From a virus, in IMG/VR virus record IMGVR_UViG_3300032092_003271, positions 1-64,000 of that record: 64,000 nt of DNA. One strand, 5' to 3'. Shown in pieces: positions 11,528 to 64,000 of this stretch. Numbering within the stretch: the first letter of the stretch is position 1; every line of letters starts with the position of its first letter. A program made the position numbers and the translations under genes. The notes beneath the pieces are model-generated. The model worked only from the letters and a program-made list of their open reading frames with translations, had not been told where the DNA came from and ran no database searches.

Positions 11528-11710
11528 ATGGGATTAGATTTTAGAGCAAGAACAGGTAGAATAGCAAATGGATCAAGATTGGTTGTTTCAGGTGAAGTGA
11601 CAACAGGACAAAAAGTATTTCCTGTAACTTTTAAAAAAACAAACCCTTATGATCTAACGCCCACACAAAAAGAAGCGTTACAATCTTTGAGCGGATCGAC
11701 GACTAACTAA
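11528..11710 (+). CDS. small hypothetical protein
   Basis: 60-aa ORF filling the terminase-portal gap. Confidence 0.65.
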   Translation: MGLDFRARTGRIANGSRLVVSGEVTTGQKVFPVTFKKTNPYDLTPTQKEALQSLSGSTTN

Positions 11711-11747
11711 CTATTGAAATATTTATATCTATAGTTAAACTTTTAAT

Positions 11748-13553
11748 ATGGAAAATAACAATAAAAATCTAACGGTTTGGCAAAGGTTAGCAACGACTTT
11801 TGGTCCTGATTCTACATTAGGTCAAGGTCAACCTGATTACAAGTTAGATAAAAAAGAAATTTTAAAAACTCAAGATAAAGCTGAATATGAAAAAGCAAAA
11901 CTTCAAAATCAGCAATCTCTTTATTTAAGTGGTAATTGGGCTAAAGTAGAAAATAATTTATATACCCAAGCCGTATATTACGAACCAACAAGATTAGCCG
12001 CATTCTATGACTATGAATCGATGGAATATACTCCTGAGATATCAACAGCTTTAGATATTTATGCTGAGGAATCAACAACACCCGATCAAAACGGTTATGT
12101 TTTACAAGTTTATTCAGAATCTAAAAGAATAAAAAGTATATTGGTTGATTTATTCGTCAATACTTTAGATATAAACACTAACTTACCTATGTGGATTAGA
12201 AACATGTGTAAGTATGGTGATAATTTTGTTTATTTAAAATTGGACCCTGAAAAAGGAGTTACAGGATGTTTACAACTACCTAATATTGAAATTGAAAGAT
12301 TAGAAAGAGGTGTTGACTCAAGAACATACCAAGCAACAATGAATTTAAACAGAAAGGCTTTAAAGTTCGCATGGAAATCAAGAGACACAGAATTTAATAC
12401 TTGGGAGGTCGCTCACTTTAGATTATTGGGTGACGATAGAAAACTTCCTTATGGTACATCGATGTTAGAAAAAGCTCGTCGTATTTGGAAACAATTAGTA
12501 TTGTCAGAAGATGCGATGTTAATCTATAGGACATCAAGAGCACCTGAAAGAAGAGTATTTAAAGTTTACGTTGGTAACATGGATGACAAAGATGTGGAAC
12601 CATACGTACAAAGAGTTGCAAACAAATTTAAAAGGGATCAAGTTGTTGATAGAAAAACAGGAAATGTGGATTTACGATTTAACCAAATGGCGGTAGATCA
12701 AGATTACTTTATTCCTGTACGTGATCCGGCACAAGCGAGTCCGATTGAGACTTTGCCGGGAGCACAAAACTTATCTGAAATTGCTGACATCGAGTACATC
12801 CAAAAGAAATTAGTTACAGCGCTTCGTATTCCTAAGGCTTATTTAGGATTTGAGGAACCTGTAGGTGATGGTAAAAACTTATCATTATTAGATATTCGTT
12901 TTGCAAGAACAATCAATAGAATTCAAAAATCTGCAATTGCAGAAATGAACAAAATTGCAATCATCCACTTATTCCTTATGGGATTTGAGGATGAGTTGTC
13001 AAATTTTACTTTACAACTTACAAACCCATCAAAACAAGCTGACTTGTTAATGATTGATGTGTGGAAAGAAAAGGTAACACTATACAAAGATATGGTTACT
13101 GAAGTCCCAAAATCAATCCAAGCTGTTTCGGCTACTTGGGCGAAAAAACACATTTTTGGTTTCTCAGACGAAGAAATTAAACTTGAGTTACAACAAATTA
13201 GAATGGAAAGAGCAGTTTCTACTGAACTTGATAATACCGCAACAATCATCACAAAAACAGGTATTTTTGATACTGTAGATAGACTTTATAAACCTGTAAC
13301 AGGTGGAACAATGACACCTACAGCACCTGCAGCACCAGGGGCTGAGGCGGCACCAGGGGCAGAAGCACCTGCAGAAGCGGCACCTGCAGAGGCAGCACCA
13401 ACAGTTCCTGAAAGTATTAGAAAAGAAAAAAATAAACTAATATTAGAATCTAAAGATGATGATTTCGATGAAGATGAGTTTTTAGATTTTAAAAAAATGA
13501 ACGGATCTTTAAATCTTATTGAAGATGAATTAAATAAACTTCTTGGTGACTAA
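11748..13553 (+). CDS. gp20: portal protein (T4 gp20-like)
   Basis: PEISTALDIYAEE, LEKARRIWKQLVLSEDAMLIYRTSRAPERRVF, DYFIP, IETLPG, DIEYIQKKL; TATTTAT at 11720-11726. Confidence 0.95.
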   Translation: MENNNKNLTVWQRLATTFGPDSTLGQGQPDYKLDKKEILKTQDKAEYEKAKLQNQQSLYLSGNWAKVENNLYTQAVYYEPTRLAAFYDYESMEYTPEISTALDIYAEESTTPDQNGYVLQVYSESKRIKSILVDLFVNTLDINTNLPMWIRNMCKYGDNFVYLKLDPEKGVTGCLQLPNIEIERLERGVDSRTYQATMNLNRKALKFAWKSRDTEFNTWEVAHFRLLGDDRKLPYGTSMLEKARRIWKQLVLSEDAMLIYRTSRAPERRVFKVYVGNMDDKDVEPYVQRVANKFKRDQVVDRKTGNVDLRFNQMAVDQDYFIPVRDPAQASPIETLPGAQNLSEIADIEYIQKKLVTALRIPKAYLGFEEPVGDGKNLSLLDIRFARTINRIQKSAIAEMNKIAIIHLFLMGFEDELSNFTLQLTNPSKQADLLMIDVWKEKVTLYKDMVTEVPKSIQAVSATWAKKHIFGFSDEEIKLELQQIRMERAVSTELDNTATIITKTGIFDTVDRLYKPVTGGTMTPTAPAAPGAEAAPGAEAPAEAAPAEAAPTVPESIRKEKNKLILESKDDDFDEDEFLDFKKMNGSLNLIEDELNKLLGD

Positions 13554-13564
13554 TATTTATTAAC

Positions 13565-14023
13565 ATGAGTAAATTTAAAAATCTTACTGAAAAAAATATG
13601 AGGTTTCTTCTTAAAAGGATGCGTGAAGATATCTATAACTTTGGTTCAACAAGAGATTTAATTTCAGGGTCTAATCAAAAAATACTTAAAGACATTTTAG
13701 ATGACATTGGGATGATACCTAATAATGAAGACTTATCATTTATTTTCGCATTATATAGAATAAACCCAAACAGTGATACTGAACCAATAAAAATTCCAAA
13801 ATTACACACTTACGAAATTTACACGAAAAGATATGCTTCTATTAGTGTAAGAGAATTATGGAAAAATACTGTTGAAAGTTATTTTGAAGACGAAGACGAC
13901 GTTCAAGATTTTGATAGTTGGTTTGGTGGTGCCGATTGGTGGGAAGGTGAGATGGTTGACCGAGATGAATATGATGAAGAAACAACAGAAACTGAATATG
14001 ACGAAATAAACAAATTAAGTTGA
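13565..14023 (+). CDS. hypothetical protein
   Basis: 152 aa; TATTTAT at 13554-13560, 4 nt before the ATG. Confidence 0.75.
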   Translation: MSKFKNLTEKNMRFLLKRMREDIYNFGSTRDLISGSNQKILKDILDDIGMIPNNEDLSFIFALYRINPNSDTEPIKIPKLHTYEIYTKRYASISVRELWKNTVESYFEDEDDVQDFDSWFGGADWWEGEMVDRDEYDEETTETEYDEINKLS

Positions 14024-14044
14024 TATTTATTAGAAAAAACAAAA

Positions 14045-14755
14045 ATGTTCGGAGAATTAAAATCAAAAATAGAAACGCATTTAACTGAATCCTATAAAAA
14101 AGGTACTCTAAAGGATAACTTATTCGTATTTGAAGAGTTAGTTTTAAAAAACAAAAATATATCAAAGATATTTTTCTTGTACGACGAATTATCAAGTAAT
14201 AAAGGTCTTCAGGAAAGTATTGCAAATGAATTCATAAATGAATCAATAACTGCATACGAAAACTTATTTAATAAAGTTTCTCCTTTCAGTGTAAAAGAAC
14301 TTAAAATGTGGGTTGGTCATGTTCAGTGTGAAAATACATACAAAGAAATTGACAATTTATTCTCAACAAATGTTTTAACTTTAGAAAACAAAATTAAAAG
14401 TAAAAAAGTTATTTTAGAAAATTTAAAAACTAAAGAACAAGAAAAGAAAGAGATAATTAATGTACCTTTAAAATCTATGGTGAATGTTGCAAACAAAACT
14501 GTTGAGAAATACATTCAGTCACTTTCTGAATCTGAAAGAAAAGAATTAAAAAAATTGTTATCTACCCCAAAAGAAACTTTGATTGAAAATTATAATAAAT
14601 TAAAGTCAGATGTTTTTGAAAAATTAAACTCGCAAAAAGATAATTCAGACGAAGAAACGTCAAAGACTATAGATCAAGTTTTAAACAAATTGCAAAACGA
14701 ATCGTTTAACGAATTGAATTACTATAAGTTAGGAAAACTAAACGAGGGACTTTAA
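14045..14755 (+). CDS. hypothetical helical protein of the head module
   Basis: 236 aa between portal and protease; TATTTAT at 14024-14030. Confidence 0.8.
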   Translation: MFGELKSKIETHLTESYKKGTLKDNLFVFEELVLKNKNISKIFFLYDELSSNKGLQESIANEFINESITAYENLFNKVSPFSVKELKMWVGHVQCENTYKEIDNLFSTNVLTLENKIKSKKVILENLKTKEQEKKEIINVPLKSMVNVANKTVEKYIQSLSESERKELKKLLSTPKETLIENYNKLKSDVFEKLNSQKDNSDEETSKTIDQVLNKLQNESFNELNYYKLGKLNEGL

Positions 14756-14923
14756 TTTTTGAATATAGGAAGCCTTAATGATTTGGGCTCTTTTCTTAAC
14801 TGAAGGTTTTACAAACTCTTTCCTCTCAAACAAAGCTGAGTTTTGTTTGGTTCTAATAACTTTTCCTTTAAGGTCTTTTAGGGCCTTCTCAATGTTTCCT
14901 TTTTTTACTTCTACTAATAACAT
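14738..14923 (-). CDS. rpsU: 30S ribosomal protein bS21 (phage-encoded)
   Basis: MLLVEVKKGNIEKALK...RKEFVKPSVKKRAQIIKASYIQ matches the Bacteroidota bS21 pattern (F.KPSV.KR.QI.KA.YIQ). Confidence 0.9.
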   Translation of the reverse strand: MLLVEVKKGNIEKALKDLKGKVIRTKQNSALFERKEFVKPSVKKRAQIIKASYIQKLKSLV

Positions 14924-14942
14924 AAAATTTTTGATTGTTGAT

Positions 14943-14955
14943 ATAAATATAAATA
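14943..14955 (-). promoter_or_regulatory. two overlapping TATTTAT elements upstream of bS21
   Basis: The + strand reads ATAAATATAAATA, i.e. TATTTATATTTAT on -, 19 nt before the bS21 ATG. Confidence 0.6.
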
Positions 14956-15003
14956 TTCGTTAGATTTAATCAAAAATAAACATTGAGAACATGAAAAAAT
15001 TCT

Positions 15004-15471
15004 ATGAAAAAAGGAAAAACCACAAAATTAAGTGGATATCGAACATTCAAAGCCCAATATGGGACTATTGATTCACAAAACTTAAAATCAATTTACATCA
15101 ACATCCAAACATGGGTAGAACCTAAAGAAGAAGTGGAAAACTGGAACAGAGTCGTTCTAAATATGACAAGATCAGTTAAACACTGTGTGTTAGAAAATAT
15201 AAACAAAGATACATTTGACACAAAATTTATTGTAGATTTAGACCTCAGAACAAGCGGACTACAATTAAAAAAGAAATCCTTTATGAATTTAGAAATAAAT
15301 TTATTTTTATTAGAACAAATGGATTTCAAATCACCAAAATTAAAAAAATCAGTTAAAAATTTAATCAAAGAAGTTTACAGTGATGTTTTTAGTAAAAACA
15401 GATACTTCAAATGTTTTCTTACAAAAAACGGAAATCAAAAACTTGTTAAGAAAGAAACTGAAACTGTTTAG
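15004..15471 (+). CDS. hypothetical protein
   Basis: 155-aa basic ORF divergent from bS21. Confidence 0.8.
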   Translation: MKKGKTTKLSGYRTFKAQYGTIDSQNLKSIYINIQTWVEPKEEVENWNRVVLNMTRSVKHCVLENINKDTFDTKFIVDLDLRTSGLQLKKKSFMNLEINLFLLEQMDFKSPKLKKSVKNLIKEVYSDVFSKNRYFKCFLTKNGNQKLVKKETETV

Positions 15472-15492
15472 TATTTATAAATAAAATATTAA

Positions 15493-16221
15493 ATGAGCGA
15501 TTTAAAAATATTAGGACCAAGAGATTCAGGAAAAGGGATTCTTGTTGAGTATGACGCAGGATATATAGACCCAAATGAAAGAAGAAACTTATCTATGATT
15601 AGAGAGAACAGAGATATGTTAGACCATTCAAAACCATTTGAGTTTTATGCTGTATTACAAAAATACAATACCCCAAATAGAAACGGGAGAGTTTACCCTG
15701 AAAAGATTCTCAAAAGAGAGGCTGACAATTATAAAAAGATGATTCAAAAAGGAACCGCCCTTTCTGAGTTAAATCACCCTGAATCATCTCTAATAGATTT
15801 AGATCGAGTATCCCACGCCATTACCGATATATGGTGGGAAGGTCCTGTGTTATTAGGTAAATTGAAATTACTTACAAGTCCAGGTTTTCACGAAAGAGGT
15901 ATTGTATCAACAAAAGGGGATTTAGCCGCTAACTATCTTCGTCAAGGTGTAACATTAGGTATATCTTCTCGTGGTGTTGGGTCTCTTAAAAAAGTTGGTG
16001 AACAAAACGAAGTACAGGATGATTTTGAATTAATTTGTTTTGACTTAGTATCATCTCCATCCACGCCAGGAGCATATCTTTTCAGAGATAAAGACGAAAG
16101 AATGAATTACGAAGAGAATTTAGATGAGGAGAAAAAAATGCAAGCCGAAAGACATATTGGTGAAACAGGATCAAAATCACTTGACTTAATGAATAGATTG
16201 TCCGATTATTTGAATAAATAA
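15493..16221 (+). CDS. gp21: prohead core protein protease (T4 gp21-like)
   Basis: NRNGRVYP, ELNHP, GISSRGVGS, FDLVSSPSTPGA; TATTTAT at 15472-15478. Confidence 0.95.
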   Translation: MSDLKILGPRDSGKGILVEYDAGYIDPNERRNLSMIRENRDMLDHSKPFEFYAVLQKYNTPNRNGRVYPEKILKREADNYKKMIQKGTALSELNHPESSLIDLDRVSHAITDIWWEGPVLLGKLKLLTSPGFHERGIVSTKGDLAANYLRQGVTLGISSRGVGSLKKVGEQNEVQDDFELICFDLVSSPSTPGAYLFRDKDERMNYEENLDEEKKMQAERHIGETGSKSLDLMNRLSDYLNK

Positions 16222-16227
16222 TTAATT

Positions 16228-16440
16228 ATGGACGAAAAATATTTTGTAGCAAAAATCACCACTGATATGGTTGATGAGAACACAGGTAAGATTAAAAAGC
16301 TGAGAGAAGAAAAATTGGTTCGTGGGTACTCACCTACCGATGTTGAGGCTAAAGTTACCAAGGTTTACGAAAATTATTCTATGGATTGGAGAATCACCGC
16401 AATCGTTGAATCAAAAATTGATGAGGTTATAGAAGGTTAA
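16228..16440 (+). CDS. small protein resembling the Bacteroidota DUF4494 N-terminal domain
   Basis: YF.AKI.....DENTGK.KK..E..LV...S.TDVEAKV pattern (recalled similarity). Confidence 0.55.
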   Translation: MDEKYFVAKITTDMVDENTGKIKKLREEKLVRGYSPTDVEAKVTKVYENYSMDWRITAIVESKIDEVIEG

Positions 16441-16460
16441 TAGTAACAAGAATTTAAAGG

Positions 16461-16499
16461 AATGGGAGTTGACAAAAAAGTCTTCTCCCATTTTTTTTT
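16461..16499 (+). terminator. Rho-independent terminator
   Basis: AATGGGAG-TT-GAC-AAAAAA-GTC-TT-CTCCCATT stem with a T run. Confidence 0.8.
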
Positions 16500-16558
16500 G
16501 TCTGAAATACTCAAGAAATAAATTTTTTTTAAAATTCATGATATTTATTTGATAATAA

Positions 16559-18091
16559 ATGGAAAATACAAATATGGCAAATAACCAAAATGTAGTAGAG
16601 GACGCTCTTTACCAAATTAGAAATTTGGAAGAGACCTTACAAGAGAATGCAAAAGGAATACTTCAATCTACAATGAGTGAAGAAATCAAACAATTAGTAA
16701 AAGAATCTCTTAAAGAATCTAAAAAAGATGAGGAGATTGATGAGCAAGATGAACCCGTAACAGGTGGAGAAGCAGAAATGGACACAGAAACTGAAATGGA
16801 AGATGAAGAAATGGACGATGATATGGAGGTTGATGCCGAAATGGAAATGGACATGGAAGGAGACGAAATGGAAGACGAAATGGAAATGGACATGGAAGGA
16901 GACGAAATGGAAGACGAAGAAACTATCGATATGACAGGAGCTTCTGATGCTGAAGTCTTAAGAGTTTTTAAAGCTATGGGTGATAATGATGGAATCGTTG
17001 TGAAAAAAGAAGGTGAGAATACAGTTCATCTTACAGACGGTGATAACGAATACATGATCCAATTGGGTGAATCTGAAGAAGATATGAATGAAACAATTTA
17101 CGAAATAGAAATGGACGAATCCGACGACATGATGGAATACGACATGATGGAAATGGAAGACGACATGATGGAAGATGACATGATGGAATACGACATGATG
17201 GAAGATGACATGATGGAAGATGACATGATGGAATACGACATGATGGAAATGGAAGACGATATGATGGAAATGGAAGCAGAGTTTGACATGGACGGTATCA
17301 TGGAATCAATTAAAAAATCTGTTAAACCAAAAGGTGTTGGAATTGGAAAAGGTCCAAAATTTAGCTATGACAAAAAACCTAACATGGGCGGAGGTTTCAA
17401 TGAAAAAAGAAAAGAAGCTTTTGGAAAAGGAACTAAGGCTATGGGTACAGGTAAAGCTAAATTTGAATATAAAGAAGAAAAAGAGTGGGGTGGTAACAAA
17501 GGTGACTACAAGAGAAGTAAAGGTCACAAAGTAGGTGATAAAGATGGTCACTTTAAAGACTATGAAAAGAAAGAAACTAAAGAAGCTGTAAGAACTAATA
17601 GTTATCCTAGAGCTAACAAAGTTGGTAACAGAAAAGGTTCTGACCAAAATGTGAATAGAAAAGAAATTAGACAAAGACCTAATACAAGAGTTAATGAAGA
17701 AGTTCAATTATTGAAAAATAAAAATGATGAGTACAAAAAAGCCCTTGACGTTTTTAGAACTAAATTGAATGAAGTTGCTGTGTTTAACTCTAATTTGGCT
17801 TACGCTACTCGTTTGTTCACTGAACACTCAACTACTAAACAAGAAAAAGTTAACATCTTAAGAAGATTTGATGATGTTGAGTCTTTAAAAGAATCAAAAA
17901 ATCTGTACAGAGTTATTAAAAATGAGTTAAACTCAACTGGCTCTTCATCAGAACAAAAATTAACTGAGTCAATTGAAAGAACTGTAAATAGAACTGTTGA
18001 AACAGGATCTGCAGTGAATTTGATTGAATCAAAAACTTATGAAAATCCTCAATTCATGAGAATGAAGGATTTAATGGGAAAAATAAAATAA
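16559..18091 (+). CDS. prohead core/scaffolding protein (gp22-like position)
   Basis: Very acidic, coiled-coil C-terminus (KLNEVAVFNSNLAYATRLF), directly upstream of MCP; TATTTAT at 16542-16548. Confidence 0.75.
   Translation: MENTNMANNQNVVEDALYQIRNLEETLQENAKGILQSTMSEEIKQLVKESLKESKKDEEIDEQDEPVTGGEAEMDTETEMEDEEMDDDMEVDAEMEMDMEGDEMEDEMEMDMEGDEMEDEETIDMTGASDAEVLRVFKAMGDNDGIVVKKEGENTVHLTDGDNEYMIQLGESEEDMNETIYEIEMDESDDMMEYDMMEMEDDMMEDDMMEYDMMEDDMMEDDMMEYDMMEMEDDMMEMEAEFDMDGIMESIKKSVKPKGVGIGKGPKFSYDKKPNMGGGFNEKRKEAFGKGTKAMGTGKAKFEYKEEKEWGGNKGDYKRSKGHKVGDKDGHFKDYEKKETKEAVRTNSYPRANKVGNRKGSDQNVNRKEIRQRPNTRVNEEVQLLKNKNDEYKKALDVFRTKLNEVAVFNSNLAYATRLFTEHSTTKQEKVNILRRFDDVESLKESKNLYRVIKNELNSTGSSSEQKLTESIERTVNRTVETGSAVNLIESKTYENPQFMRMKDLMGKIK
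16838..17276 (+). repeat. coding repeats in scaffold: exact 39-bp duplication (16838-16915) and 15/21-bp DMME(Y/D/MED) array (~17123-17276)
   Basis: gaaatggaaatggacatggaaggagacgaaatggaagac x2; repeated gacatgatggaa. Confidence 0.9.
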
Positions 18092-18120
18092 ACATAAACT
18101 AAAAATAAAAAACCTAAAAA

Positions 18121-22655: not shown

Positions 22656-22680
22656 AATATTTTATTTTATAAATATCTCT

Positions 22681-34811: not shown

Positions 34812-34812
34812 T

Positions 34813-35415: not shown

Positions 35416-35433
35416 TGTATTAATTATTGTGAT

Positions 35434-36722: not shown

Positions 36723-36725
36723 CTT

Positions 36726-37529: not shown

Positions 37530-37532
37530 AAG

Positions 37533-38543: not shown

Positions 38544-38544
38544 A

Positions 38545-39021: not shown

Positions 39022-39023
39022 AA

Positions 39024-39812: not shown

Positions 39813-39817
39813 TTTTG

Positions 39818-40627: not shown

Positions 40628-40629
40628 TA

Positions 40630-41361: not shown

Positions 41362-41365
41362 ATTA

Positions 41366-44595: not shown

Positions 44596-44596
44596 A

Positions 44597-53495: not shown

Positions 53496-53543
53496 ATCAA
53501 AAAGATATAAATAAGGTTATGGTTGTATTTATTTAGAAATACA

Positions 53544-54581: not shown

Positions 54582-57500
54582 ATGGCAAATCCATATAAAA
54601 ATCCACAAACACCTTTATTAGCGGTTGGAACTTTCTCAGTTCAACCAAGTCAGACATTTGGTACTAATTTTAGTATATATAGTGTTGGTGGTTATATGGA
54701 AGTTTATGAACTTCAGGATTTAATTTATACAATCCCAACTGGATCTCAAGGAGATATAGAATTTTCAGGTAATACAATTCCAATACAATTCCAAAAAGGT
54801 AGTGGATCGGTTTTCTCACCTGACGTTTTAACATTAAATTCGGATAATATTTCGTCAGGTCGTAGAAGACTTGGTATGTTGGCGTATGTTTATTCAACAC
54901 AAGAAATATTCCAATATAATATCCCAAATTATACGACACTTTGGAATAACGCATTGGCGGCTTCAGGACCTGGTGGACCAACCGTACTACAATCAAAATT
55001 TGGAACCACAGTAAAAAGTAATTCAGCTGCAGGACAAGCGTTAATTAATGCTTGGACAGGATCAACAATTCAGGGTCACAGTGGTGGAACTGCCAATTCT
55101 AATTGGAGATTATTAGACACAGGTGGATGTTGTATTACAGGATTTACATACAACAATGACAATAGTTTCACTATATACGATGATAATGGTGGTGTATTTA
55201 CCGCATCTTTTGATGTTGTTACAGGATTGACAGTATCAGGAGGATCTTTAATTGTTAATGGTGTTAATATTACAGGTGACACATTTACAACAGGAGGTAC
55301 ATATTTTAGTGCAACAAGTACAATAGATTTATATGACAATCAAGGGGGTATTGTTACAATTACAGGTATAACGGCATCAGGTGTTGCAGGATCAAACGGA
55401 TCTTCAGGTTCTAGCGGTACTTCAGGAACATCAGGAACATCAGGATCTAATGGATCTTCAGGTATATCCGGTTCTTCAGGATCTAGTGGGACTAGCGGAA
55501 CATCAGGTGTAAGCGGTTTATCAGGAACGAGCGGTTCTTCAGGTTCTTCAGGTTCTTCAGGAATTTCAGGATCTTCAGGGACTTCAGGAACTAGAGGTTC
55601 TTCAGGGACTTCAGGAACTTCAGGGACTAGAGGTTCTTCAGGTAGTTCAGGAAGTGGTGGTACAAGCGGTACAAGCGGAGTTAGTGGTGCGTCAGGAACT
55701 AGCGGTACAAACGGTACAAGCGGTAGTTCAGGAACATCAGGAAGTAGTGGTACAAACGGTACTTCAGGAACATCAGGAACTTCTGGTACAGGTGGTACTT
55801 CAGGTATAAACGGACAATCAAATTCATTATTCCCATATAACGCAAGAGTAGATATCCAATCAGGAGATCCAGGTAATACAAATATTATTTGGAATAATGT
55901 AACACAATCGGCATCAACACAAATAAATATTTCACATTTAGATAATGATAATGATGATATTGATATATTTTTGGGGTTAATTCCAAGTGGAACAACAATT
56001 ATTATCCAAGACCAAATTAATTCAACTGAATTTCAAAAATGGATTGTTGGAGTTGGTGTTGAAGCGGCTCCCAATTCATATTGGACTTTTCCTGTTACAT
56101 TAGTATCATCAACCATTGAATTTACAGGTGGGGAAAATATATTATTTATTATAGGACAATTACCTTCTGGAACAAGTGGGGTATCAGGAACATCAGGAAC
56201 ATCAGGATCTAATGGTTCTTCAGGTACGTCAGGAAATAGCGGTACAGACGGAACTTCAGGGTCTAGTGGTTCTTCAGGAAGTAGTGGTTCTTCAGGAAGA
56301 AGTGGTTCTTCAGGTACGTCAGGAACTAGCGGTATAGATGGAAACGATTCTTCGAATAGTGGTAGATGGGGATATGAGGGCATTTCTACTACTCCCGGAC
56401 CTGGTCGTTTTGGGACGGATAACCCGGTAATGAGTTTAATTGGGTATGTCTACATAAATTCAGAAGCCGAAAACGGTGTAGATTATTCTACATGGCTTTC
56501 AGGAGTAGATAGTATACAAAACCTTGGATTCCCTGTTTCTTTACAAATTACACAGGTAGGTTCTAACAATATTATCGGTATATGGGAAGTTGTTTCTATT
56601 ACTTCAACAGGTAGTGTTTACGAGTTTCAAGTTGACCCGCCATTTGTTACAAATGGTACTATAACAGATACTTGTACAATATCATGGGTATATAATGGGA
56701 TCAGTGGTTCTTCAGGTTCTTCAGGAATTTCAGGATCTTCAGGAATTTCAGGTTCTTCAGGTTCTTCAGGTTCTTCAGGTTCTTCAGGAATTTCAGGATC
56801 TTCAGGGACTTCAGGAACTAGAGGTTCTTCAGGGACTTCAGGGACTAGAGGTTCTTCAGGTAGTTCAGGTTCTTCAGGGACTTCAGGGACTAGAGGTTCT
56901 TCAGGGACTTCAGGGGCTTCAGTTGCCGTTAATGGTATCACAAATTACGTTGTTAAATTTACAGGGTCAACAGGTATCGGTAATAGTCAAATTTTTGATA
57001 ATGGAACCACAGTAAGTATCGGTACATCCGCATCGACTAGTAATTACAAATTAGATGTTCGTGGAGCAACCATTATGTCTGCAACAACAGGAACAAGTCT
57101 AACTGTAATTAGTTCAGGTAACAGTACATCGGCACCCGTACTTTCAGTCCAAGGATCACAAGGCGAATTGTTTAGTGTTACGGATAGTTTAATTGGATCT
57201 TTATTTTCCGTTAATGACATTTCAGGTTTACCTATACTGGAGGTATTTTCTGATAGTACCACAATAATTGGTAACTATTTAGCGCCTTCATTATATACGA
57301 CAACAAAAGTAACATCGATAACTGCATCAACTGGAACAACAATATATTCAATACCGATCAGTGCATACACATCTTCATTTATTGATTATTATGTAAGTGG
57401 AGCCACAGGTATGAGAGCAGGTAATATTATGGCAATATGGAGCGGGACTACTGTACAATCAACAGATAATTCAACCGCAGACATCGGTAGTACAACACCT

Positions 57501-57599
57501 TTAACATTTGGGTTTTTGGTTTCGGGGTCAACAACATTATTTAGTGCGTCAGCATCAACAGGGAATTGGACTGTTGAGTCCATAATAAGGGCATTGTAA
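54582..57599 (+). CDS. fibre-like virion protein with three collagen-like (G-S/T-S)n blocks
   Basis: Gly every third residue in blocks ~55387-55806, ~56164-56340 and ~56697-56921; C-terminal VQGSQGELFSVTDSL.GSLFSVNDISGLPILEV module. Confidence 0.8.
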   Translation: MANPYKNPQTPLLAVGTFSVQPSQTFGTNFSIYSVGGYMEVYELQDLIYTIPTGSQGDIEFSGNTIPIQFQKGSGSVFSPDVLTLNSDNISSGRRRLGMLAYVYSTQEIFQYNIPNYTTLWNNALAASGPGGPTVLQSKFGTTVKSNSAAGQALINAWTGSTIQGHSGGTANSNWRLLDTGGCCITGFTYNNDNSFTIYDDNGGVFTASFDVVTGLTVSGGSLIVNGVNITGDTFTTGGTYFSATSTIDLYDNQGGIVTITGITASGVAGSNGSSGSSGTSGTSGTSGSNGSSGISGSSGSSGTSGTSGVSGLSGTSGSSGSSGSSGISGSSGTSGTRGSSGTSGTSGTRGSSGSSGSGGTSGTSGVSGASGTSGTNGTSGSSGTSGSSGTNGTSGTSGTSGTGGTSGINGQSNSLFPYNARVDIQSGDPGNTNIIWNNVTQSASTQINISHLDNDNDDIDIFLGLIPSGTTIIIQDQINSTEFQKWIVGVGVEAAPNSYWTFPVTLVSSTIEFTGGENILFIIGQLPSGTSGVSGTSGTSGSNGSSGTSGNSGTDGTSGSSGSSGSSGSSGRSGSSGTSGTSGIDGNDSSNSGRWGYEGISTTPGPGRFGTDNPVMSLIGYVYINSEAENGVDYSTWLSGVDSIQNLGFPVSLQITQVGSNNIIGIWEVVSITSTGSVYEFQVDPPFVTNGTITDTCTISWVYNGISGSSGSSGISGSSGISGSSGSSGSSGSSGISGSSGTSGTRGSSGTSGTRGSSGSSGSSGTSGTRGSSGTSGASVAVNGITNYVVKFTGSTGIGNSQIFDNGTTVSIGTSASTSNYKLDVRGATIMSATTGTSLTVISSGNSTSAPVLSVQGSQGELFSVTDSLIGSLFSVNDISGLPILEVFSDSTTIIGNYLAPSLYTTTKVTSITASTGTTIYSIPISAYTSSFIDYYVSGATGMRAGNIMAIWSGTTVQSTDNSTADIGSTTPLTFGFLVSGSTTLFSASASTGNWTVESIIRAL
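55533..56842 (+). repeat. ~83-bp direct repeat between GSS blocks 1 (55533-55615) and 3 (56760-56842), on a background of 9-bp units
   Basis: ggttcttcaggttcttcaggttcttcaggaatttcaggatcttcagggacttcaggaactagaggttcttcagggacttcagg occurs in both. Confidence 0.85.
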
Positions 57600-57600: not shown

Positions 57601-58305
57601 ATGGCATTTAATTATTCACCTAAAATAGTTACAGATAGATTAGCCATGTATTTAGATGCGGCTAACACCAAATCATATGTTTCAGGTTCAACTACCGCCT
57701 ATTCATTAACTGGATCGATTAACGGTTCATTAATTAATGGAACAGGATATAGTAATATAAATGGAGGGGCTTGGAGGTTTGACGGTATAGATGATAGTAT
57801 TTTTTATGGTCTTCAACCAATTAACTTTAATCCCTCAACTCAACCTTTCTCTATGGGTGGATGGGCCAATTTACTTTCAACCGGAGGAAATGGAAATAGG
57901 GCCGTAATATTAGACATATGCGGTACTAATACATCTCGTTTATATATTGCTATAGATAAAACTAATTTACGTTTGATTGTTGATATAAGACCACCTGCCG
58001 GAACAGTTTACGTTCCAGTATCCGGTAATACAAATTCAATTTCATTAGGAAGATGGGTTTATGGTATGGTTACATTCGATGGGGGTACTATTAATTTATA
58101 TCAAAATGGAGAATTAATTAGTACCGCAACTGGTTTTACTAATTACCCCGTTATAAATTACAATTGGTATAGCGGATTTCAAGATGATGATGACGCAGAT
58201 ATGAATGGATATATAAGTTCAGTCTCATTTTATCTAAAAACATTATCGGCATCAGAAGTTCTCCAAAACTATAACGCAATTAAATCACGATACGGATTAT
58301 TATAA
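57601..58305 (+). CDS. LamG/concanavalin-A-like domain protein 1
   Basis: IVTDRLAMYLDAAN, FDGIDD, LYQNG, LSASEVLQNYNA. Confidence 0.85.
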   Translation: MAFNYSPKIVTDRLAMYLDAANTKSYVSGSTTAYSLTGSINGSLINGTGYSNINGGAWRFDGIDDSIFYGLQPINFNPSTQPFSMGGWANLLSTGGNGNRAVILDICGTNTSRLYIAIDKTNLRLIVDIRPPAGTVYVPVSGNTNSISLGRWVYGMVTFDGGTINLYQNGELISTATGFTNYPVINYNWYSGFQDDDDADMNGYISSVSFYLKTLSASEVLQNYNAIKSRYGLL

Positions 58306-59033
58306 TGGCAGGAAGAATAACATATTACGGTGCTGTAGTAAAAGACGGTCTTGTTTTAGATTTAGATGCCGCAAAACGTGATTCATATATTGGAAATGGA
58401 ATTGTATGGACGGATGTTTCAGGATTCCAAAATATTGGTACGTTAACAAATGGACCTACATTTGATTCAAACAATGGGGGTAGTATTCTATTTGATGGTG
58501 TAGATGATGAGGTTCTTGTTGGTAATGACCGTTATACTATGGTTTCGGCAATGACTTGGGACATATGGGTTAAAAGAATTTCTGATGGAAATGTATTCAA
58601 CATGATGATGAGTAATTTTATGCCATATATGGCTTTCAGAGGGACTGATAGCGGCTCAGACATAAATAAATTTAATGTTGCATACCGTACAGTCACAGGA
58701 GTTACGACAACTCAAAGAAATTTATTAACGACAGGCGCAACTTTTAGTAATAACATATGGTATAATTTTACTTACACTTTATTGTATGATTTACAAAATC
58801 AACTTGCAACCGCAAAAATTTATGTTAACGGAGTATTCAACACGTCATCTTCAAATAACAGTGATTCAGTTTACCAACCATCTGTAGGTAGTAGATTACG
58901 TTTAGGTAACTATACGTCAAATCAATATCCGTTTCCTGGTAACATTAGTAATTTTAAAATCTATCATAAAATACTTTCAGACTCAGAAGTTCTCCAAAAC
59001 TATAATGCACTAAAAGGGAGGTACGGACTATGA
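58305..59033 (+). CDS. LamG/concanavalin-A-like domain protein 2
   Basis: DGLVLDLDAA, FDGVDD, IYVNG, LSDSEVLQNYNA. Confidence 0.85.
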   Translation: MAGRITYYGAVVKDGLVLDLDAAKRDSYIGNGIVWTDVSGFQNIGTLTNGPTFDSNNGGSILFDGVDDEVLVGNDRYTMVSAMTWDIWVKRISDGNVFNMMMSNFMPYMAFRGTDSGSDINKFNVAYRTVTGVTTTQRNLLTTGATFSNNIWYNFTYTLLYDLQNQLATAKIYVNGVFNTSSSNNSDSVYQPSVGSRLRLGNYTSNQYPFPGNISNFKIYHKILSDSEVLQNYNALKGRYGL

Positions 59034-59740
59034 GTACTCTATCAGGTGGTCCTAATATTGTGACCAATGGGTTGGTATTGTATTTGGATGCTGCAAACCC
59101 AAATTCATATGTTTCCGGATCAACTACTTGGAGAGATATTTCTCGTAGTGTAAATAATGGGACATTGATAAATGGACCTACATACAGCAGTGCTAATGGT
59201 GGATCTATCGTTTTTGATGGTTCGGATGATTATGTAAATTTAGGTGTTAATTTAAATAATATTTTTATTGGTTCCTCATTCACCGTAAATATGTGGGTTT
59301 CTATTTCTATTAATTTACCGGACGGCAACGGTTATTCTCTAATATCTAACTATAGTGGTGATATTCCAACAAATAATGGGTTTCAATTAGGTTGGAGAGG
59401 TGGTTTGGGGGACACCTTATACGCTTTTGGGGATGGGTATTTATCTCGTACACTAGATAACGTCACAGGATTAACCTCCAATGTTTGGTACAATATTACT
59501 TTTGTATATGTGAGAAACACGTCAGGAAACATTTATTTAGATGGTATAAATAAAACCAATAATTCATTTACGAATACAGTTAACGCACCAAACCAAAATT
59601 TAAAATTAGGTGTAAGATCCGATAATAATACTTTCCCATGGTATGGTAAGATGGCAATCACCCAAGTCTATAATCGTGCACTAAGTGATTCTGAAATTTT
59701 ACAAAACTATAACGCAATTAAATCACGATTCGGAGTTTAA
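59030..59740 (+). CDS. LamG/concanavalin-A-like domain protein 3
   Basis: NGLVLYLDAAN, FDGSDD, IYLDG, YNRALSDSEILQNYNA. Confidence 0.85.
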   Translation: MSTLSGGPNIVTNGLVLYLDAANPNSYVSGSTTWRDISRSVNNGTLINGPTYSSANGGSIVFDGSDDYVNLGVNLNNIFIGSSFTVNMWVSISINLPDGNGYSLISNYSGDIPTNNGFQLGWRGGLGDTLYAFGDGYLSRTLDNVTGLTSNVWYNITFVYVRNTSGNIYLDGINKTNNSFTNTVNAPNQNLKLGVRSDNNTFPWYGKMAITQVYNRALSDSEILQNYNAIKSRFGV

Positions 59741-59839: not shown

Positions 59840-61981
59840 ATGGCAAATGAATTTGTTGCAAGGCGTGGTATAACATCTTTGGGTGGTATTACATTACCAT
59901 ATACGGGAGTAAGCTCCACATATACAATCAATACAAACAATTATTTCATTGATTGTACAAGTGGGACATTTACTGTCACCCTTCCGACTGCGGTTGGTAT
60001 TGCGGGTCAAACTTTTATAATAAAAAATAGCGGAGCAGGAACAATAACCGTTGCAACGACAGGTGGTCAAAGTATAGATGGGACTACAACAAAAACATTA
60101 ACACAATACGAGTCAATAACCGTACAAAGTGACGGATCCAATTGGGCTATTGGTAGTACCGCTGAAACGGGAGGATCGGCAATACCAGGTTCAAACAATC
60201 AACTATTAACTTCAGATGGTGCAGGTGGTGCGATTGCAGAATCATTATTAACGTTTGATGGTACAATTACGTCACCGTATTTAAATGTCAATTCAGTAAA
60301 AATCGGAAGGGGTAATAACAATGTATCAACAAATATTTCAATTGGCGGGATTGCGTTTAGTTCTGGATCAACAGGGTGTAATAATACTGCGATAGGTTTA
60401 AATTCTCTTAGTGCTAACACAACAGGATCTTTCAATATTGCGATAGGAGGATCCACTTTAAGCGCATCAACTATAGGTAATAGAAATATTGCAATTGGTC
60501 ACCAATCTCTTCAATCAGGTGCCGGACTTTGTAATAACGTAGCGATTGGATATAAGTCAGGGGCTCGTTTAGGTAACAATCTCACTCCAACCGATAATAT
60601 TTTTATTGGGTGTCAAGCTGGTTACGGTGCAAATACAGGAAATGTTAGTTTTGGTAATATATTATCTGATAATATTGCTATTGGCAAAAAAGCAGGATGT
60701 AGTATAGGAAGTAAATACAATCCCTCAATATATTGTGGTAATAGTGGATATCCTGATTATATCAATGAGTATGCCCCGGGTTGGGCAACTAGTGGTAAAA
60801 ATGTTTTTATAGGAAACTACGCAGGACAAAATGCCACACCACCATCACCCTGTTCCCCAGCCGCAACAATAATAGGATATAATACGGCAATTGGTCATTG
60901 TTCAATGGCCTCTACCACATATGGTAAATTAAATACTGCAATAGGATATGCATCTTTAAAATCTAATACCACAGGTAACTACAACGTAGCGATTGGGTTA
61001 CATTCTCTTTGTTCTAATACGTCGGGAAATTTAAACGTAGCAATAGGTACTTGTGCGTTACGTTTAAATACGACCGGAATTCAAAATAATGCGATGGGGT
61101 TTAGATCACTAGGAAAAAATACATCCGGGCTTAGGAACACGGCAATAGGATATAATACTTTATACGCAAATACGACAGGTACTGATAACTTGGCACTTGG
61201 TCATCGTTCTTTATTATTTAACACTACGGGAGGTAATAACATTGGTTTAGGGGTTTATGCATTACGAAATAATACTACTGGAAACCGTAATACCGCAATA
61301 GGTTCAAACGCGTTACGGTGCAATACTACATGTTCAGATAACACAGCAATAGGGTACTTTGCTTTAGCTTCAAATGATATCTCAAATTTTAACACAGCTA
61401 TAGGGTCCAATTCCCAAAGGAATTCCAGCACAGGTGGTGCTAATACTTCAATAGGAACGGATAGTTTAAGGTTTAACACAACAGGTGGTGGTAATAATGC
61501 AATAGGTTCCCGTGCTTTATATGCTAACACAACAGGTGATGGTAATACAGCAATAGGTAGGAATACTTTATGTTCAAACACAACTGGATTTTTTAACGTA
61601 GCTATAGGATTTTATTCTTTAAATAAAAATACAAATGGCTCACGTAATATAGCAATAGGTAGAGATTCTTTATATGGAAGAACATCCAATTGTGATACAA
61701 TTGCTATTGGATATAAGGCTTTTCGTGGTGGTGGTGGTCCATTTTTTCCTGATACTTGTACTACATCCCACAATATTGGTATTGGTGCATATGTAAATTT
61801 TGCATGTAATACAGTAGGTTCTGTTATTATAGGTAGATGTGCTACATCTACGGCAAGTAATCAATTTGTGATTGGTAGTACTACTAATATAGTAGGAGCC
61901 GTTACCACAGAAACTTGTTCTGCAACTAAAACATGGTCTGTAGTAATTAATGGAGTAGCACAAAAAATTCTACTTGCTTAA
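59840..61981 (+). CDS. tail-fibre/adhesin-like protein with 14-aa N(T/V/I)AIG beta-roll repeats
   Basis: Repeats of NTAIG..AL..NTTG; N-terminal TVTLPTAVG..G.TFIIKNSG module; TATTTAT at 59775-59781. Confidence 0.8.
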   Translation: MANEFVARRGITSLGGITLPYTGVSSTYTINTNNYFIDCTSGTFTVTLPTAVGIAGQTFIIKNSGAGTITVATTGGQSIDGTTTKTLTQYESITVQSDGSNWAIGSTAETGGSAIPGSNNQLLTSDGAGGAIAESLLTFDGTITSPYLNVNSVKIGRGNNNVSTNISIGGIAFSSGSTGCNNTAIGLNSLSANTTGSFNIAIGGSTLSASTIGNRNIAIGHQSLQSGAGLCNNVAIGYKSGARLGNNLTPTDNIFIGCQAGYGANTGNVSFGNILSDNIAIGKKAGCSIGSKYNPSIYCGNSGYPDYINEYAPGWATSGKNVFIGNYAGQNATPPSPCSPAATIIGYNTAIGHCSMASTTYGKLNTAIGYASLKSNTTGNYNVAIGLHSLCSNTSGNLNVAIGTCALRLNTTGIQNNAMGFRSLGKNTSGLRNTAIGYNTLYANTTGTDNLALGHRSLLFNTTGGNNIGLGVYALRNNTTGNRNTAIGSNALRCNTTCSDNTAIGYFALASNDISNFNTAIGSNSQRNSSTGGANTSIGTDSLRFNTTGGGNNAIGSRALYANTTGDGNTAIGRNTLCSNTTGFFNVAIGFYSLNKNTNGSRNIAIGRDSLYGRTSNCDTIAIGYKAFRGGGGPFFPDTCTTSHNIGIGAYVNFACNTVGSVIIGRCATSTASNQFVIGSTTNIVGAVTTETCSATKTWSVVINGVAQKILLA

Positions 61982-62039
61982 AAAATGACTTTGACATTTA
62001 AATTGTAACACTTATGTTTTATTAAACAAAATAAAATTT

Positions 62040-62861
62040 ATGGTGCAAAAAGTATTTTATAATCCATCCATGCCTAGAGCAGGATCAACCTTGATTCAAA
62101 ACATTTTAATGCAAAATCCCGATATCTATTCAACCCCTACTTCAGGTGTAATTGAATTTTTATTGAATGCGAGATCAGTATATTCTGCGGGTGATTCATT
62201 TAGGGCTCAAGATCAGGATGAAATGAAAAAAGGATTCAAAAATTTCTGCAAAACAGGACTATATGGTTTCTTTGACGGAATTACAGACCGTCCATACGTA
62301 ATAGATAAGAGTAGATCGTGGTTAGGTCACTTTAACTTCATTGAGTTTTTTACGGATGAAAAACCAAAAATGATTGTTATGGTCCGTGATTTACGAGCAA
62401 TATTTGCTTCAATGGAGAAAAATTTCCGTAAACACCCCGACAAAGACCCAATGATTATTAATGGTGTTGAATTAAAAAACATGACTACCGCCGCTCGAGT
62501 TGATCATTTTTCAATTTCTCCACCCATTGGTCCGTCTATTGAGTGGTTATCTGAGGCAATACATCAAGGAATAGATAAAGATATTTTATTTATAAGATTT
62601 GAAGATTTGACAGTGGATCCTGAAACTGAATTAATAAAAATCTATAATTATTTAGAACTACCATATTTTAAACATGACTTTAATAACGTAGAACAACTAA
62701 CAAATGAAAATGATGTTATACATGGTATTTTTGGAGACCATAAAATTAAACCTCAAGTAAAACCTGTAAAGGATAATTTTATTGAAATTCTTGGAAAAGA
62801 ACAATGTGATCGTTTACGAGAACATTATGATTGGTATTTTAGAGCCTTTAACTATATTTAA
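62040..62861 (+). CDS. sulfotransferase family protein
   Basis: 5'-PSB loop SMPRAGSTL, DKSR.W, VRDLRAIFAS 3'-PB motif, IRFEDL. Confidence 0.85.
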   Translation: MVQKVFYNPSMPRAGSTLIQNILMQNPDIYSTPTSGVIEFLLNARSVYSAGDSFRAQDQDEMKKGFKNFCKTGLYGFFDGITDRPYVIDKSRSWLGHFNFIEFFTDEKPKMIVMVRDLRAIFASMEKNFRKHPDKDPMIINGVELKNMTTAARVDHFSISPPIGPSIEWLSEAIHQGIDKDILFIRFEDLTVDPETELIKIYNYLELPYFKHDFNNVEQLTNENDVIHGIFGDHKIKPQVKPVKDNFIEILGKEQCDRLREHYDWYFRAFNYI

Positions 62862-62880
62862 TATTTATAAAAAAAACAAA

Positions 62881-63117
62881 ATGGAAGAAACACAAACAAC
62901 AGAACAAGTGCAACAACATATTAGTGCGGCATTTGACTCGGTTAATTTAATTAACGAAGAAATCACTAAAGAAATGACCGATGAACGTAAAAACACAATA
63001 AAACGTAATGGTGATCATCTTGAAATTATGATGGCAAAAGGTTGGTTTTTATCGGGATGTACTGAACAACAGATTATCGATATTAATAATTCTATTACTA
63101 CGTCAAAGTCGTATTAA
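62881..63117 (+). CDS. small hypothetical protein (possible fibre-associated chaperone)
   Basis: Start at ATG 62881 (MEETQTTE) after TATTTAT 62862-62868; DSVNLI..RN..HLEIM. Confidence 0.65.
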   Translation: MEETQTTEQVQQHISAAFDSVNLINEEITKEMTDERKNTIKRNGDHLEIMMAKGWFLSGCTEQQIIDINNSITTSKSY

Positions 63118-63129
63118 AAAATATTATAA

Positions 63130-64000
63130 ATGGAAGAAAAATATTTAGTGTGGCATATTCAGGGAGGTTTAGGTAAGAATGTTGCTGCAACATCATTAAT
63201 AGACTCTTTATCTGTAAAATATTCAGATAGGAAGATAGTGATAGTGGCATCATATCCCGAAGTATTTTTGAATCAAGAAAACATTTATAGAGTATATGGT
63301 TTAGGTAACACTCAATATTTTTATGATGATTATATAAAGGATAAAGATACTTTAGTATTTAGACACGAACCTTATTATGAGACTAATCATATACTAAAAA
63401 ATAAACATCTATTATCCAATTGGTGCAAATTATTAGGTATTGATTATGATTTTCAAAAACCAAAGTTATCTTTTAATTTTGCACAAAAAAGAATGTCTTT
63501 AAAATGGAAACGAGAAAAACCAATTTTTTTAATTCAAACAAACGGAGGATCAATGATGTCAGACCAAGAATATTCTTGGGCTAGAGATTTACCATTTTCT
63601 ATTTCATTAGAGGTTGTAGAAAAGTTTAAGGAAACTCATCACGTTATTCAAATTTGTAAACCGTCTTCATTAAAAATACCCGGAGTAGAAGTGATAAGTG
63701 ATAATATGTCATCAATGGAGTTATTTACATTACTTTCGGTGACAGACAAACGATTGTTAATTGATTCTAGTTTACAACATGTGGCAACAGCAATGAATTT
63801 ACCATCAACCGTAATTTGGATTGCCACATCACCGACAAATTTTGGATATTCAATGCATAATAATATAGTTGCAAATCCACCTTCAGGTAACGTTAAATTA
63901 ATTGGTTCTTATCTTTTTGATTATTCTTTTGATGGTTTACCTCATGAGTGCCCTTATTACAGTTTGGATGAAATGTTCGACATTGATAAAATATTAGAAA
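63130..64000 (+). CDS. GT9 (heptosyltransferase-like) glycosyltransferase, truncated by the window end; absent from the ORF track
   Basis: Translated from ATG 63130: MEEKYLVWHIQGGLGKNVAAT...LIDSSLQHVATAMNLPSTVIW..TSP..FGY; open to the end. Confidence 0.8.
   Translation, partial: MEEKYLVWHIQGGLGKNVAATSLIDSLSVKYSDRKIVIVASYPEVFLNQENIYRVYGLGNTQYFYDDYIKDKDTLVFRHEPYYETNHILKNKHLLSNWCKLLGIDYDFQKPKLSFNFAQKRMSLKWKREKPIFLIQTNGGSMMSDQEYSWARDLPFSISLEVVEKFKETHHVIQICKPSSLKIPGVEVISDNMSSMELFTLLSVTDKRLLIDSSLQHVATAMNLPSTVIWIATSPTNFGYSMHNNIVANPPSGNVKLIGSYLFDYSFDGLPHECPYYSLDEMFDIDKILE

Follow-up and report, generated by a model that had tools for sequence, protein, structure and literature searches.

Glycosyltransferases of a T4-like jumbo phage and the Ser/Thr-rich fibre tracts they may modify

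A candidate glycosylation system for fibre tracts

The window analysed here spans bases 1-64000 (64,000 nucleotides) of a 96,919-bp (~97 kb) viral contig from IMG/VR, which is a fragment of the genome of a T4-like jumbo phage. The contig carries about 25 glycan genes, and the presence among them of two from protein-glycosylating enzyme families makes it probable, if by a modest measure, that the phage coats Ser/Thr-rich low-complexity tracts of its own fibres with sugar. One of the two encodes a TibC/Aah-type domain, the other a homologue of glycosyltransferase (GT) family GT60. An earlier sequence-only reading of the window had proposed that the phage glycosylates its own particle at a [S/T]-G-x-T sequon. 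The self-glycosylation part of this proposal gains support from the two genes, from the lack of export genes and from recurrent neighbourhoods with Ser/Thr-tract genes; the sequon part is not supported. Pro-Thr (PT) and Gly-Ser-Ser-type tracts are, judged from sequence, likely the better acceptor candidates, because the TibC-like gene is paired with collagen-like genes and the GT60 gene with Pro-Thr genes. The genes concerned are the following.

Contig 65274-68066, minus strand, just outside the window: 930-aa fusion of GT4, TibC/BAHT and FkbM methyltransferase domains (phmmer)
Contig 81376-82620, beyond the window: GT60/PF11397 polypeptide N-acetylglucosamine (GlcNAc) transferase homologue (Pfam)
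54582-57599, plus strand: 1005-aa fibre with three Pro-free collagen-like tracts and non-collagen domains (Pfam Collagen, E 1.5e-35, 7 stretches)
55380-55820, plus strand: collagen-like tract 1, 49 Gly-X-Y triplets, candidate O-glycan acceptor (X: Thr 23, Ser 17; Y: Ser 39; no Pro)
56169-56348, plus strand: collagen-like tract 2, 20 triplets (X: Thr or Ser; Y: Ser 16)
56697-56921, plus strand: collagen-like tract 3, 25 triplets (X: Ser 13, Thr 7; Y: Ser 22)
Contig 79463-81328, beyond the window: second collagen gene
51249-53495, plus strand: 748-aa Cys-rich protein with (PT)n at 52326-52361 and poly-Thr at 53436-53453 (from sequence)
53523-54569, plus strand: 348-aa protein, 18% Thr, with mucin-like Pro-Thr tracts at 53763-54005 (from sequence)

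The central domain of the 930-aa fusion aligns with TibC over residues 376-701 of the query and 49-382 of TibC (phmmer, E 2e-63, 218 bits). In TibC, Asp110 is the catalytic base, Thr226, Lys230, Arg286 and Trp305 bind the sugar, and a set of cysteines forms an iron finger (PMC4358343). Asp110, Thr226, Lys230 and Trp305 are all conserved in the phage domain, and the iron-finger residues Cys339, Cys342, Cys358 and Cys370 all align with Cys. Homologues of the fusion bear the automatic JGI annotation "autotransporter strand-loop-strand O-heptosyltransferase". A literature search found no paper tying TibC-type enzymes to phages. A further example is found in Microcystis phage Mel-JY01 (PP395634; L115:4750-8430), where a 1226-aa "methyltransferase FkbM" holds a TibC-like domain at 45% identity (E 1e-115); this gene adjoins a "structural protein" gene and, by our own open reading frame (ORF) call, the only collagen-like ORF of that genome.

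The second enzyme matches PF11397 with E 1.1e-69 and 236 bits against a cut-off of 21. A sequence search found no solved GT60 relative.

The three fibre tracts are uninterrupted runs of Gly-X-Y, as in collagen; the Pro or hydroxyproline that stabilises the collagen helix at X and Y is absent. In orthologues of the fibre (L117:10001-, L124:10001-) the N-terminal domain is shared, and the collagen-like arrays are hugely expanded and re-coded: one frame runs for at least 2548 aa of Gly-Thr-Asn/Ser and another for at least 3546 aa of Gly-Leu/Ile/Asp-Ser, with Ser at Y as the only constant.

Genes for export of a lipid-linked glycan are missing from the contig. No flippase, polymerase, ligase or initiating membrane transferase was found on it, and a crude hydropathy scan detected no multi-pass membrane ORF on the 97 kb, four ORFs having a single hydrophobic segment. 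Since no ORF exceeds one such segment, a lipid-linked export pathway is not encoded here.

Gene neighbourhoods of the two transferases

Alignment of the TibC-like fusions yielded at least 589 viral loci in IMG/VR, from which 44 clusters at no more than 85% identity were sampled and compared with 36 loci of the same clade centred on a candidate spike gene. An ORF with at least eight consecutive G-x-x triplets lies within 10 kb of the TibC-like gene in 30 of the 44 clusters and within 1 kb in 18. Long Gly-X-Y ORFs occur at none of the 36 spike loci and number 0-2 per whole genome. The collagen ORFs next to TibC-like genes are Pro-free, with Thr (58%) or Ser (32%) at X and Ser (66%) or Asn (21%) at Y, and their Gly-(Thr/Ser)-(Ser/Asn) arrays reach 955 triplets. 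The only collagen ORF of Mel-JY01 and that of G001, a close relative of the present phage, both adjoin the TibC-like gene. G001 is one of many close relatives in IMG/VR (272,576 bp, 93% complete by CheckV) and is syntenic with the contig at ~80% protein identity.

For the GT60 homologue at least 341 loci were retrieved at no less than 71% identity, and the neighbours were examined at 80 of them. A PT or poly-Thr ORF is present within 8 kb at 67 of these 80 loci, compared with 7 of the 36 spike loci.

Taking these observations together, we hypothesize that a membrane-free glycan toolkit, interleaved with the fibre genes, serves the fibres themselves. Soluble phage transferases in the host cytoplasm would place sugars directly on Ser and Thr of the fibre tracts, with the TibC/Aah-type domain acting on the Pro-free Gly-(Thr/Ser)-Ser collagen-like tracts and the GT60-type enzyme on Pro-Thr or poly-Thr tracts. 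The remaining transferases would then extend the glycan with phage-made GDP-fucose and amino sugars, and methyl-, acetyl- and sulfotransferases would decorate it.

Comparison with known systems

The closest counterparts are the TibC-TibA and Aah-AIDA-I pairs of E. coli (BAHT family; PDB 4RAP/4RB4), in which a dodecameric enzyme transfers heptose to Ser of the acceptor (PMC4358343). The phage domain aligns with the catalytic core of TibC and, as far as the alignment tells, shares with it the catalytic Asp, three of four sugar-binding residues, the four iron-finger Cys and the character of a soluble cytoplasmic enzyme. Moreover, just as tibC lies beside tibA, the phage gene recurrently neighbours a gene for a highly repetitive, Ser-rich fibrous protein. 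Unlike TibC, the phage domain is flanked within one protein by a GT4 domain on one side and an FkbM methyltransferase on the other, the N-terminal barrel of TibC is not aligned, the phage has no heptose pathway, and the candidate acceptor is a Pro-free Gly-X-Y fibre tract rather than a beta-helix autotransporter.

The GT60 enzyme is known from the Pfam description as the Skp1 hydroxyproline GlcNAc-transferase; here a member would be phage-encoded and would work in the bacterial cytoplasm on a candidate acceptor predicted from sequence. The family also includes Thr-directed mucin-type enzymes of Trypanosoma and Dictyostelium. The strong family match and the Pro-Thr and poly-Thr neighbours fit acceptors of the mucin type.

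Glycosylation of virions by phage-encoded glycosyltransferases has been described for mycobacteriophages (Freeman et al. 2023, as cited in PMC12619734). According to that summary, the two systems are alike in that soluble phage-encoded transferases are suggested, or have been shown, to modify structural proteins of the phage that encodes them, and the mycobacteriophage system uses few transferases, acts on the C-termini of capsid and tail-tube subunits and is found in phages of Actinobacteria. In contrast, the present T4-like phage has about 25 glycan genes, other enzyme families and fibre-type candidate acceptors.

In genome layout the phage resembles pelagimyophages and cyanomyophages, whose host-recognition clusters likewise hold tail-fibre genes among many glycosyltransferase and lipopolysaccharide (LPS)-type genes (PMC7029224), and the "moraphages", aquatic jumbo phages with DnaK and core glycosyltransferases (PMC12619734), DnaK and ClpC-like genes being present here too. 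In both of these papers the transferases are read as modifiers of the host O-chain or of DNA, and TibC-type or GT60 enzymes are not reported.

The D-(S/T)-(A/I/L/V/M/T) sequon of Bacteroidota, with which the sequence-only reading had contrasted its own, is likewise a short Ser/Thr-centred motif of surface proteins; nothing else here resembles that system. General O-glycosylation in Bacteroidota is periplasmic and lipid-linked.

If fibre glycosylation holds, phage-encoded virion glycosylation would extend from mycobacteriophages to T4-like phages of an abundant aquatic clade, on a scale set by the numbers of TibC-like and GT60 loci given above, and would draw on enzyme families familiar from the adhesins of bacteria and the mucins of eukaryotes. 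Collagen-like fibres that lack Pro and can run to thousands of residues would then have a rationale, with consequences for how such phages recognise hosts, how stable their particles are and how the fibres fold. The glycosyltransferases of phage host-recognition clusters are by default taken for modifiers of the host O-antigen, a view that would be called into question.

The [S/T]-G-x-T motif in this phage

Several of the proteins that carry the motif (hereafter [ST]GxT) lie outside the genes listed so far.

57601-58305, 58305-59033 and 59030-59740 (together 57601-59740), plus strand: three tandem LamG (Laminin_G_3) genes (Pfam, E 1e-13 to 1e-16)
24168-25718, minus strand: 516-aa candidate gp5/gpV-like baseplate hub or spike with three [ST]GxT (language-model lead)
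22263-24147, minus strand: two ORFs of unknown family, 130 aa and 488 aa, with two motif copies each (no family matches)
59840-61981, plus strand: 713-aa adhesin-like protein with ~20-aa NTAIG...NT[TS]G repeats (from sequence)

Translation of the 71 ORFs of the window, 26 of the virion module and 45 others, reproduced all motif copies that had been listed before: 16 in the fibre, 3 in the "spike", 2 each in 22263 and 22681, 3 in 51249, 3, 2 and 2 in the LamG proteins, and 1 each in the major capsid protein (MCP), the portal and a 60-aa ORF. The ClpC-like protein, DnaK and the terminase have none, as claimed. A comparison with shuffled sequences, which had been suggested as a check, likewise separates the structural from the other ORFs. 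The 26 virion-module ORFs hold 38 copies against 16.4 expected from global shuffles; local shuffling raises the expectation to 18.8 (40-aa windows) or 20.0 (20-aa windows), and none of 300 shuffles reaches 38. The 45 other ORFs hold 4 against 3.6, and non-virion ORFs as a whole stay at 0.75-1.1 times expectation.

With runs of at least four G-x-x and Pro-Thr runs masked, and with two LamG genes and the second collagen gene beyond the window added, 49 copies are observed against 14.9 expected, which ranks first among the 36 arrangements of {[ST],G,T}, for a motif that was picked after looking at the data. Control patterns under the same masking ([ST]GxS and the mirror order) reach only ~1.0-1.5 times. 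The excess is thus real and specific to this order of residues and is no effect of composition. Mirror and permuted controls without masking had been discarded, since collagen repeats inflate them, and were redone in this form. The collagen repeats themselves yield SGxS and not [ST]GxT; merging the two patterns was rejected, as [ST]GxS is at ~1.0 times outside the tracts. Most copies begin with Thr, TGxT being the more enriched form.

The copies are unevenly spread. Eighteen lie in the five LamG paralogues and 14 in the non-collagen parts of the fibre, which makes 32 of the 49 in two families; the description of the carriers as unrelated in fold was thus overstated. Without LamG and the fibre, 17 copies remain against 8.3 (2.06 times; p 0.08 against a phage baseline of 1.4 times). 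The LamG copies occupy common alignment columns, and both LamG genes of Flavobacterium phage immuto have the same SG[ST]T site. Among 120 database homologues of the 59030 protein at 40-60% identity, out of 5049 matches, the commonest LamG copy (SGST, residue 29 of this protein) is kept in 100 and the second copy in 4. By its conservation, SGST is a LamG family signature. In the fibre, the parts outside the collagen tracts hold 14 copies against 2.7, the N-terminal domain showing a repeat of the form I-T-G-x-T...LYDNxGG.

The tail module of G001 behaves similarly. A protein at 70544-72730 has 19 copies against 3.5, placed in repeats of the forms I-T-G-G-T-x-P-Y and T-G-L-T-S-G-x-Y; its SprB match remains below the cut-off (23.3 against 28 bits). 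The neighbouring protein (67208-69283) has 6 copies and passes Pfam SprB with 37 bits. SprB-type repeats are typical of gliding adhesins of Bacteroidota, and their presence in this tail module (L044:7208-12730) would fit a Bacteroidota host. The sites are therefore not independent of fold and family, given the concentration in two families, the LamG signature and the SprB-type protein.

Conservation of the other copies varies. Those of 22263 are kept in 5 and 7 of 10 orthologues and those of 22681 in only 6 and 5 of 16. The 748-aa protein has 3 copies against 0.76, and its nearest Atlas clusters are viral. The 713-aa protein is depleted in the motif, with 1 copy against 3.1 expected; each of its repeats contains an Asn-x-Ser/Thr triplet, and a 44%-identical segment occurs in phage immuto. 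For the "spike", the nearest named Atlas clusters are Phage_base_V and Gp5_OB at 0.90-0.91, a language-model lead only. Pfam and PHROGs returned no match for 22263, 22681, 24168 or 51249, nor Pfam or NCBIfam for the 713-aa protein; PHROGs matched just two families, both of unknown function, among ten head- and hub-region ORFs, and a profile of spike orthologues found nothing meaningful among PDB sequences.

Structure models place the copies in loops or at the ends of strands. In an AlphaFold model of the 59030 LamG protein (predicted local distance difference test, pLDDT, 85) both copies are in loops. The AlphaFold2 model of the spike, built from 13 close orthologues, is poor (pLDDT 42), and only residues 220-310 were used; there the copies sit at strand ends. 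Such positions fit a structural turn motif equally well, and the same is true of the conservation of the spike copies and of their retention in the fibre orthologue.

The motif across phages

Observed over expected [ST]GxT was then compared across genomes in Ser/Thr/Gly-rich ORFs with tracts masked. Nine phage genomes without a TibC-like or GT60 gene served as controls; the absence of GT60 rests also on blastp, as the PF11397 profile matched nowhere, the search tool's control genomes included. The controls give 1.11 (T4), 1.19, 1.27, 1.28, 1.33, 1.45, 1.70 (immuto), 1.75 (P-SSM7) and 1.92 (RM378) times expectation, and 545 copies against 381 when pooled (1.43 times). The present phage reaches 3.05 times, G001 2.24 times (87 against 38.8, rank 1) and the 44 diverse TibC-encoding loci together 2.07 times (355 against 171, rank 1). 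These three values are higher, but on a continuum with the others.

The motif does not track the enzymes: the nine enzyme-free genomes span 1.1-1.9 times, and Mel-JY01, which has the TibC-like gene, stays at 1.24 times. Near TibC-like genes, fibres (1.94 times) are no richer than other Ser/Thr/Gly-rich ORFs (2.15 times). Whether relatives with different sets of glycosyltransferases carry different motifs had been suggested as a check; the variable islands of G001 differ, yet the same motif ranks first there.

Prochlorococcus phage P-SSM7 (NC_015290) lacks a TibC-like gene, and there too [ST]GxT heads the arrangements, with 110 copies against 62.9. Fibre proteins of some phages may thus share this bias as a general trait.

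Weighing the alternatives

The excess of [ST]GxT can be most simply explained by a structural strand-turn motif rather than a recognition signal. A few expanded families of beta-rich proteins (LamG, SprB-type repeats, the repeats of the fibre N-terminal domain) would carry it as part of their make-up, and phage fibre proteins generally show a mild enrichment. It is rather improbable that [ST]GxT marks a true O-glycosylation sequon or strand-loop-strand acceptor motif read on many globular virion proteins. Such a sequon would account for the order-specific excess and its recurrence at rank 1 in G001 and at the 44 TibC-encoding loci, for its restriction to virion-module proteins, for spike copies conserved while x varies, for the retention of 3 of 4 copies in the N-terminal fibre domain of the 53%-identical orthologue L124, and for the loop and strand-end positions, all the more as the Ser residues that TibC modifies precede a Gly or Ala and lie at turns of a beta-helix (PMC4358343). 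However, the concentration in two families, the LamG signature, the 1.7-1.9 times of some enzyme-free phages, the low value of Mel-JY01, the ordinary level in TibC-adjacent fibres, the poorly conserved 22681 copies and the post hoc choice of the motif all count against it, and TibC modifies Ser only, in the contexts NS*GG and TS*AA (PMC4358343), while TGxT is the more enriched form here. We likewise give little credence to the variant in which [ST]GxT in a strand-turn-strand setting is the acceptor of a soluble phage transferase, TibC-like or other, so that LamG, hub or spike and fibre heads would be coated, and as little to its corollary that the weaker excess in other phages reflects the same, unrecognised and widespread modification. 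More generally, a 2-3-fold order-specific excess of a Ser/Thr motif can stem from family signatures and generic beta-turn preferences, and the label "sequon" calls for controls that track the enzyme.

Glycosylation of the fibre tracts has to be set against a more conventional role for the glycan genes, that of altering the surface of the infected host at its LPS O-chain or capsule, with superinfection exclusion as one conceivable benefit; this is the usual published reading for glycosyltransferases in fibre or host-recognition clusters of aquatic T4-like phages. The pelagimyophage study that describes the same layout favours host O-chain modification (PMC7029224), the Gmd/fucose, GT2, GT8, GT11 and PglD/DegT-type genes are typical of O-antigen loci, and the stretch 32488-45430 is swapped between relatives as such loci are. 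Yet the contig has no initiating phosphoglycosyl transferase, Wzx, Wzy, WaaL, ABC exporter or multi-pass membrane protein, the characterised members of the two enzyme families act on proteins, and a lipid-linked target would leave the tight recurrent pairing with Ser/Thr-tract genes unexplained. We regard host-surface remodelling as an unlikely explanation of the whole, although part of the swappable island may still serve it, because host machinery could supply the missing steps. Hypermodification of phage DNA, comparable to the glucosyl-hydroxymethylcytosine of T4 and the glycan-bearing bases of other phages, is highly improbable. The T4-like lineage, the dUTPase/dCTP-deaminase-like gene and exonuclease inside the island and published work on DNA glycan hypermodification speak for it, but the sole thymidylate-synthase-family gene (PF00303) of the 93%-complete G001 is ThyA/td-like with the dUMP-type Asn kept, and no homologue of T4 gp42 was found in a search that left aside TET/5-methylcytosine routes and the T4 alpha- and beta-glucosyltransferase families. 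Moreover, the TibC and GT60 families are protein-directed, and fucose, sulfate and O-methyl chemistry and the linkage to fibres do not fit DNA.

Several observations also weigh against fibre-tract glycosylation by the two enzymes. In the phage domain the sugar-pocket residue Arg286 of TibC is replaced by Val, and the stereoselectivity residues Ser294 and Pro300 by Glu and Gly; the donor may therefore not be heptose, and neither GmhA nor a PfkB heptose kinase was found in this contig or in G001. The TibC-like gene lies 7.7 kb from the end of the fibre gene in this contig rather than adjacent to it. The link between GT60 and PT genes represents conserved synteny and no repeated independent association, since all loci come from one clade (at least 71% identity). 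Placing the fibre, LamG and PT proteins on the virion is itself a prediction. Finally, some copies of the motif may yet act as acceptors: its three positions in the spike persist in 13, 15 and 15 of 16 orthologues although x varies, and TibC-encoding phages, at 2.1-3.3 times, lie above the pooled baseline of 1.43 times.

The sugar island and further genes

27861-51285, minus strand: sugar-nucleotide and glycosyltransferase island, interspersed with PhoH, dUTPase and exonuclease (Pfam)
Glycosyltransferases of the island: GT2 at 28987; GT1-like at 29796 and 47229; GT8-like at 35967; GT15-like at 39818; double GT2 at 41366; GT11 fucosyltransferase-like at 43753
Sugar-nucleotide genes of the island: nucleotidyltransferases at 32488 and 46774; epimerase at 32927; Gmd at 33834 (E 4e-122)
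Modifiers of the island: Methyltransf_24 at 34813 and 35434; GFO/IDH/MocA at 37533; hexapeptide acetyltransferase at 38545
62040-62861, plus strand: sulfotransferase (Pfam Sulfotransfer_3, E 5e-13)
63130-64000, plus strand: GT9-like ORF that runs off the window (Pfam)
9745-20061, plus strand: T4-type head module with terminase, portal, S77 prohead protease and gp23-like MCP with a large insertion (Pfam)

The enzymes read from sequence were largely recovered by family searches. Synthesis of GDP-fucose is represented by Gmd and an epimerase/reductase, and the methyl-, acetyl-, cytidylyl- and sulfotransferases by two Methyltransf_24 proteins that resemble sugar O-methyltransferases, the hexapeptide acetyltransferase, two cytidylyl/adenylyl-transferase-like proteins and the sulfotransferase. 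The two small nucleotidyltransferases score below cut-off in NCBIfam, which did not tell whether they are of the rfaE-domain-II or the TagD type. The count of more than 10 glycosyltransferases holds for the whole 97-kb contig and not for the window, where only four pass the Pfam cut-offs (28987, 39818, 41366 and 43753) and five more are weak. The stretch 32488-45430 is replaced in G001. Past the window the contig carries an APS (adenosine 5'-phosphosulfate) kinase, a PglD-like acetyltransferase, a GT2, two large fusions (GT4+GT9-like(TibC)+FkbM and GT1+FkbM+DegT), two LamG genes, the second collagen gene, GT60 and HtrL_YibB. Next to the sulfotransferase (L001:2011-3273) lie the APS kinase (E 2e-17) and, together with it at contig 64011-64833, an HxGH nucleotidyltransferase of 132 aa that faintly matches ATP sulfurylase; a DUF2061 gene is also there. 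To judge by these matches, a supply of 3'-phosphoadenosine 5'-phosphosulfate beside the sulfotransferase is possible.

The element is identified as a T4-like myophage by its T4-type head module, with Pfam matches to Terminase_6N, Portal_T4 (E 2e-79), the S77 prohead protease and the Gp23 MCP (E 4e-73). The MCP shares 41-47% identity with its counterparts in Mel-JY01, immuto and an uncultured 484-kb phage. It comprises 646 aa (18121-20061), of which Pfam and tblastn span only about half; the N-terminal half carries a large insertion of ~270 aa, which could be a decoration domain.

Pfam also identifies a ClpC-like ATPase and DnaK (3634-5490; HSP70, E 4e-258). The syntenic G001 lacks both DnaK and the small ORF that follows, whereas it keeps the flanks, including the ClpC-like gene. 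Absence of DnaK from a 93%-complete genome that retains the flanking genes suggests its recent gain or loss. Toward the far end of the contig, a 731-aa ORF (L002:11574-13769, corresponding to contig 90974-93169, minus strand) holds, with unknown domains on either side, an entire superoxide dismutase of the Fe/Mn type (Sod_Fe_N and Sod_Fe_C, E 6e-41).

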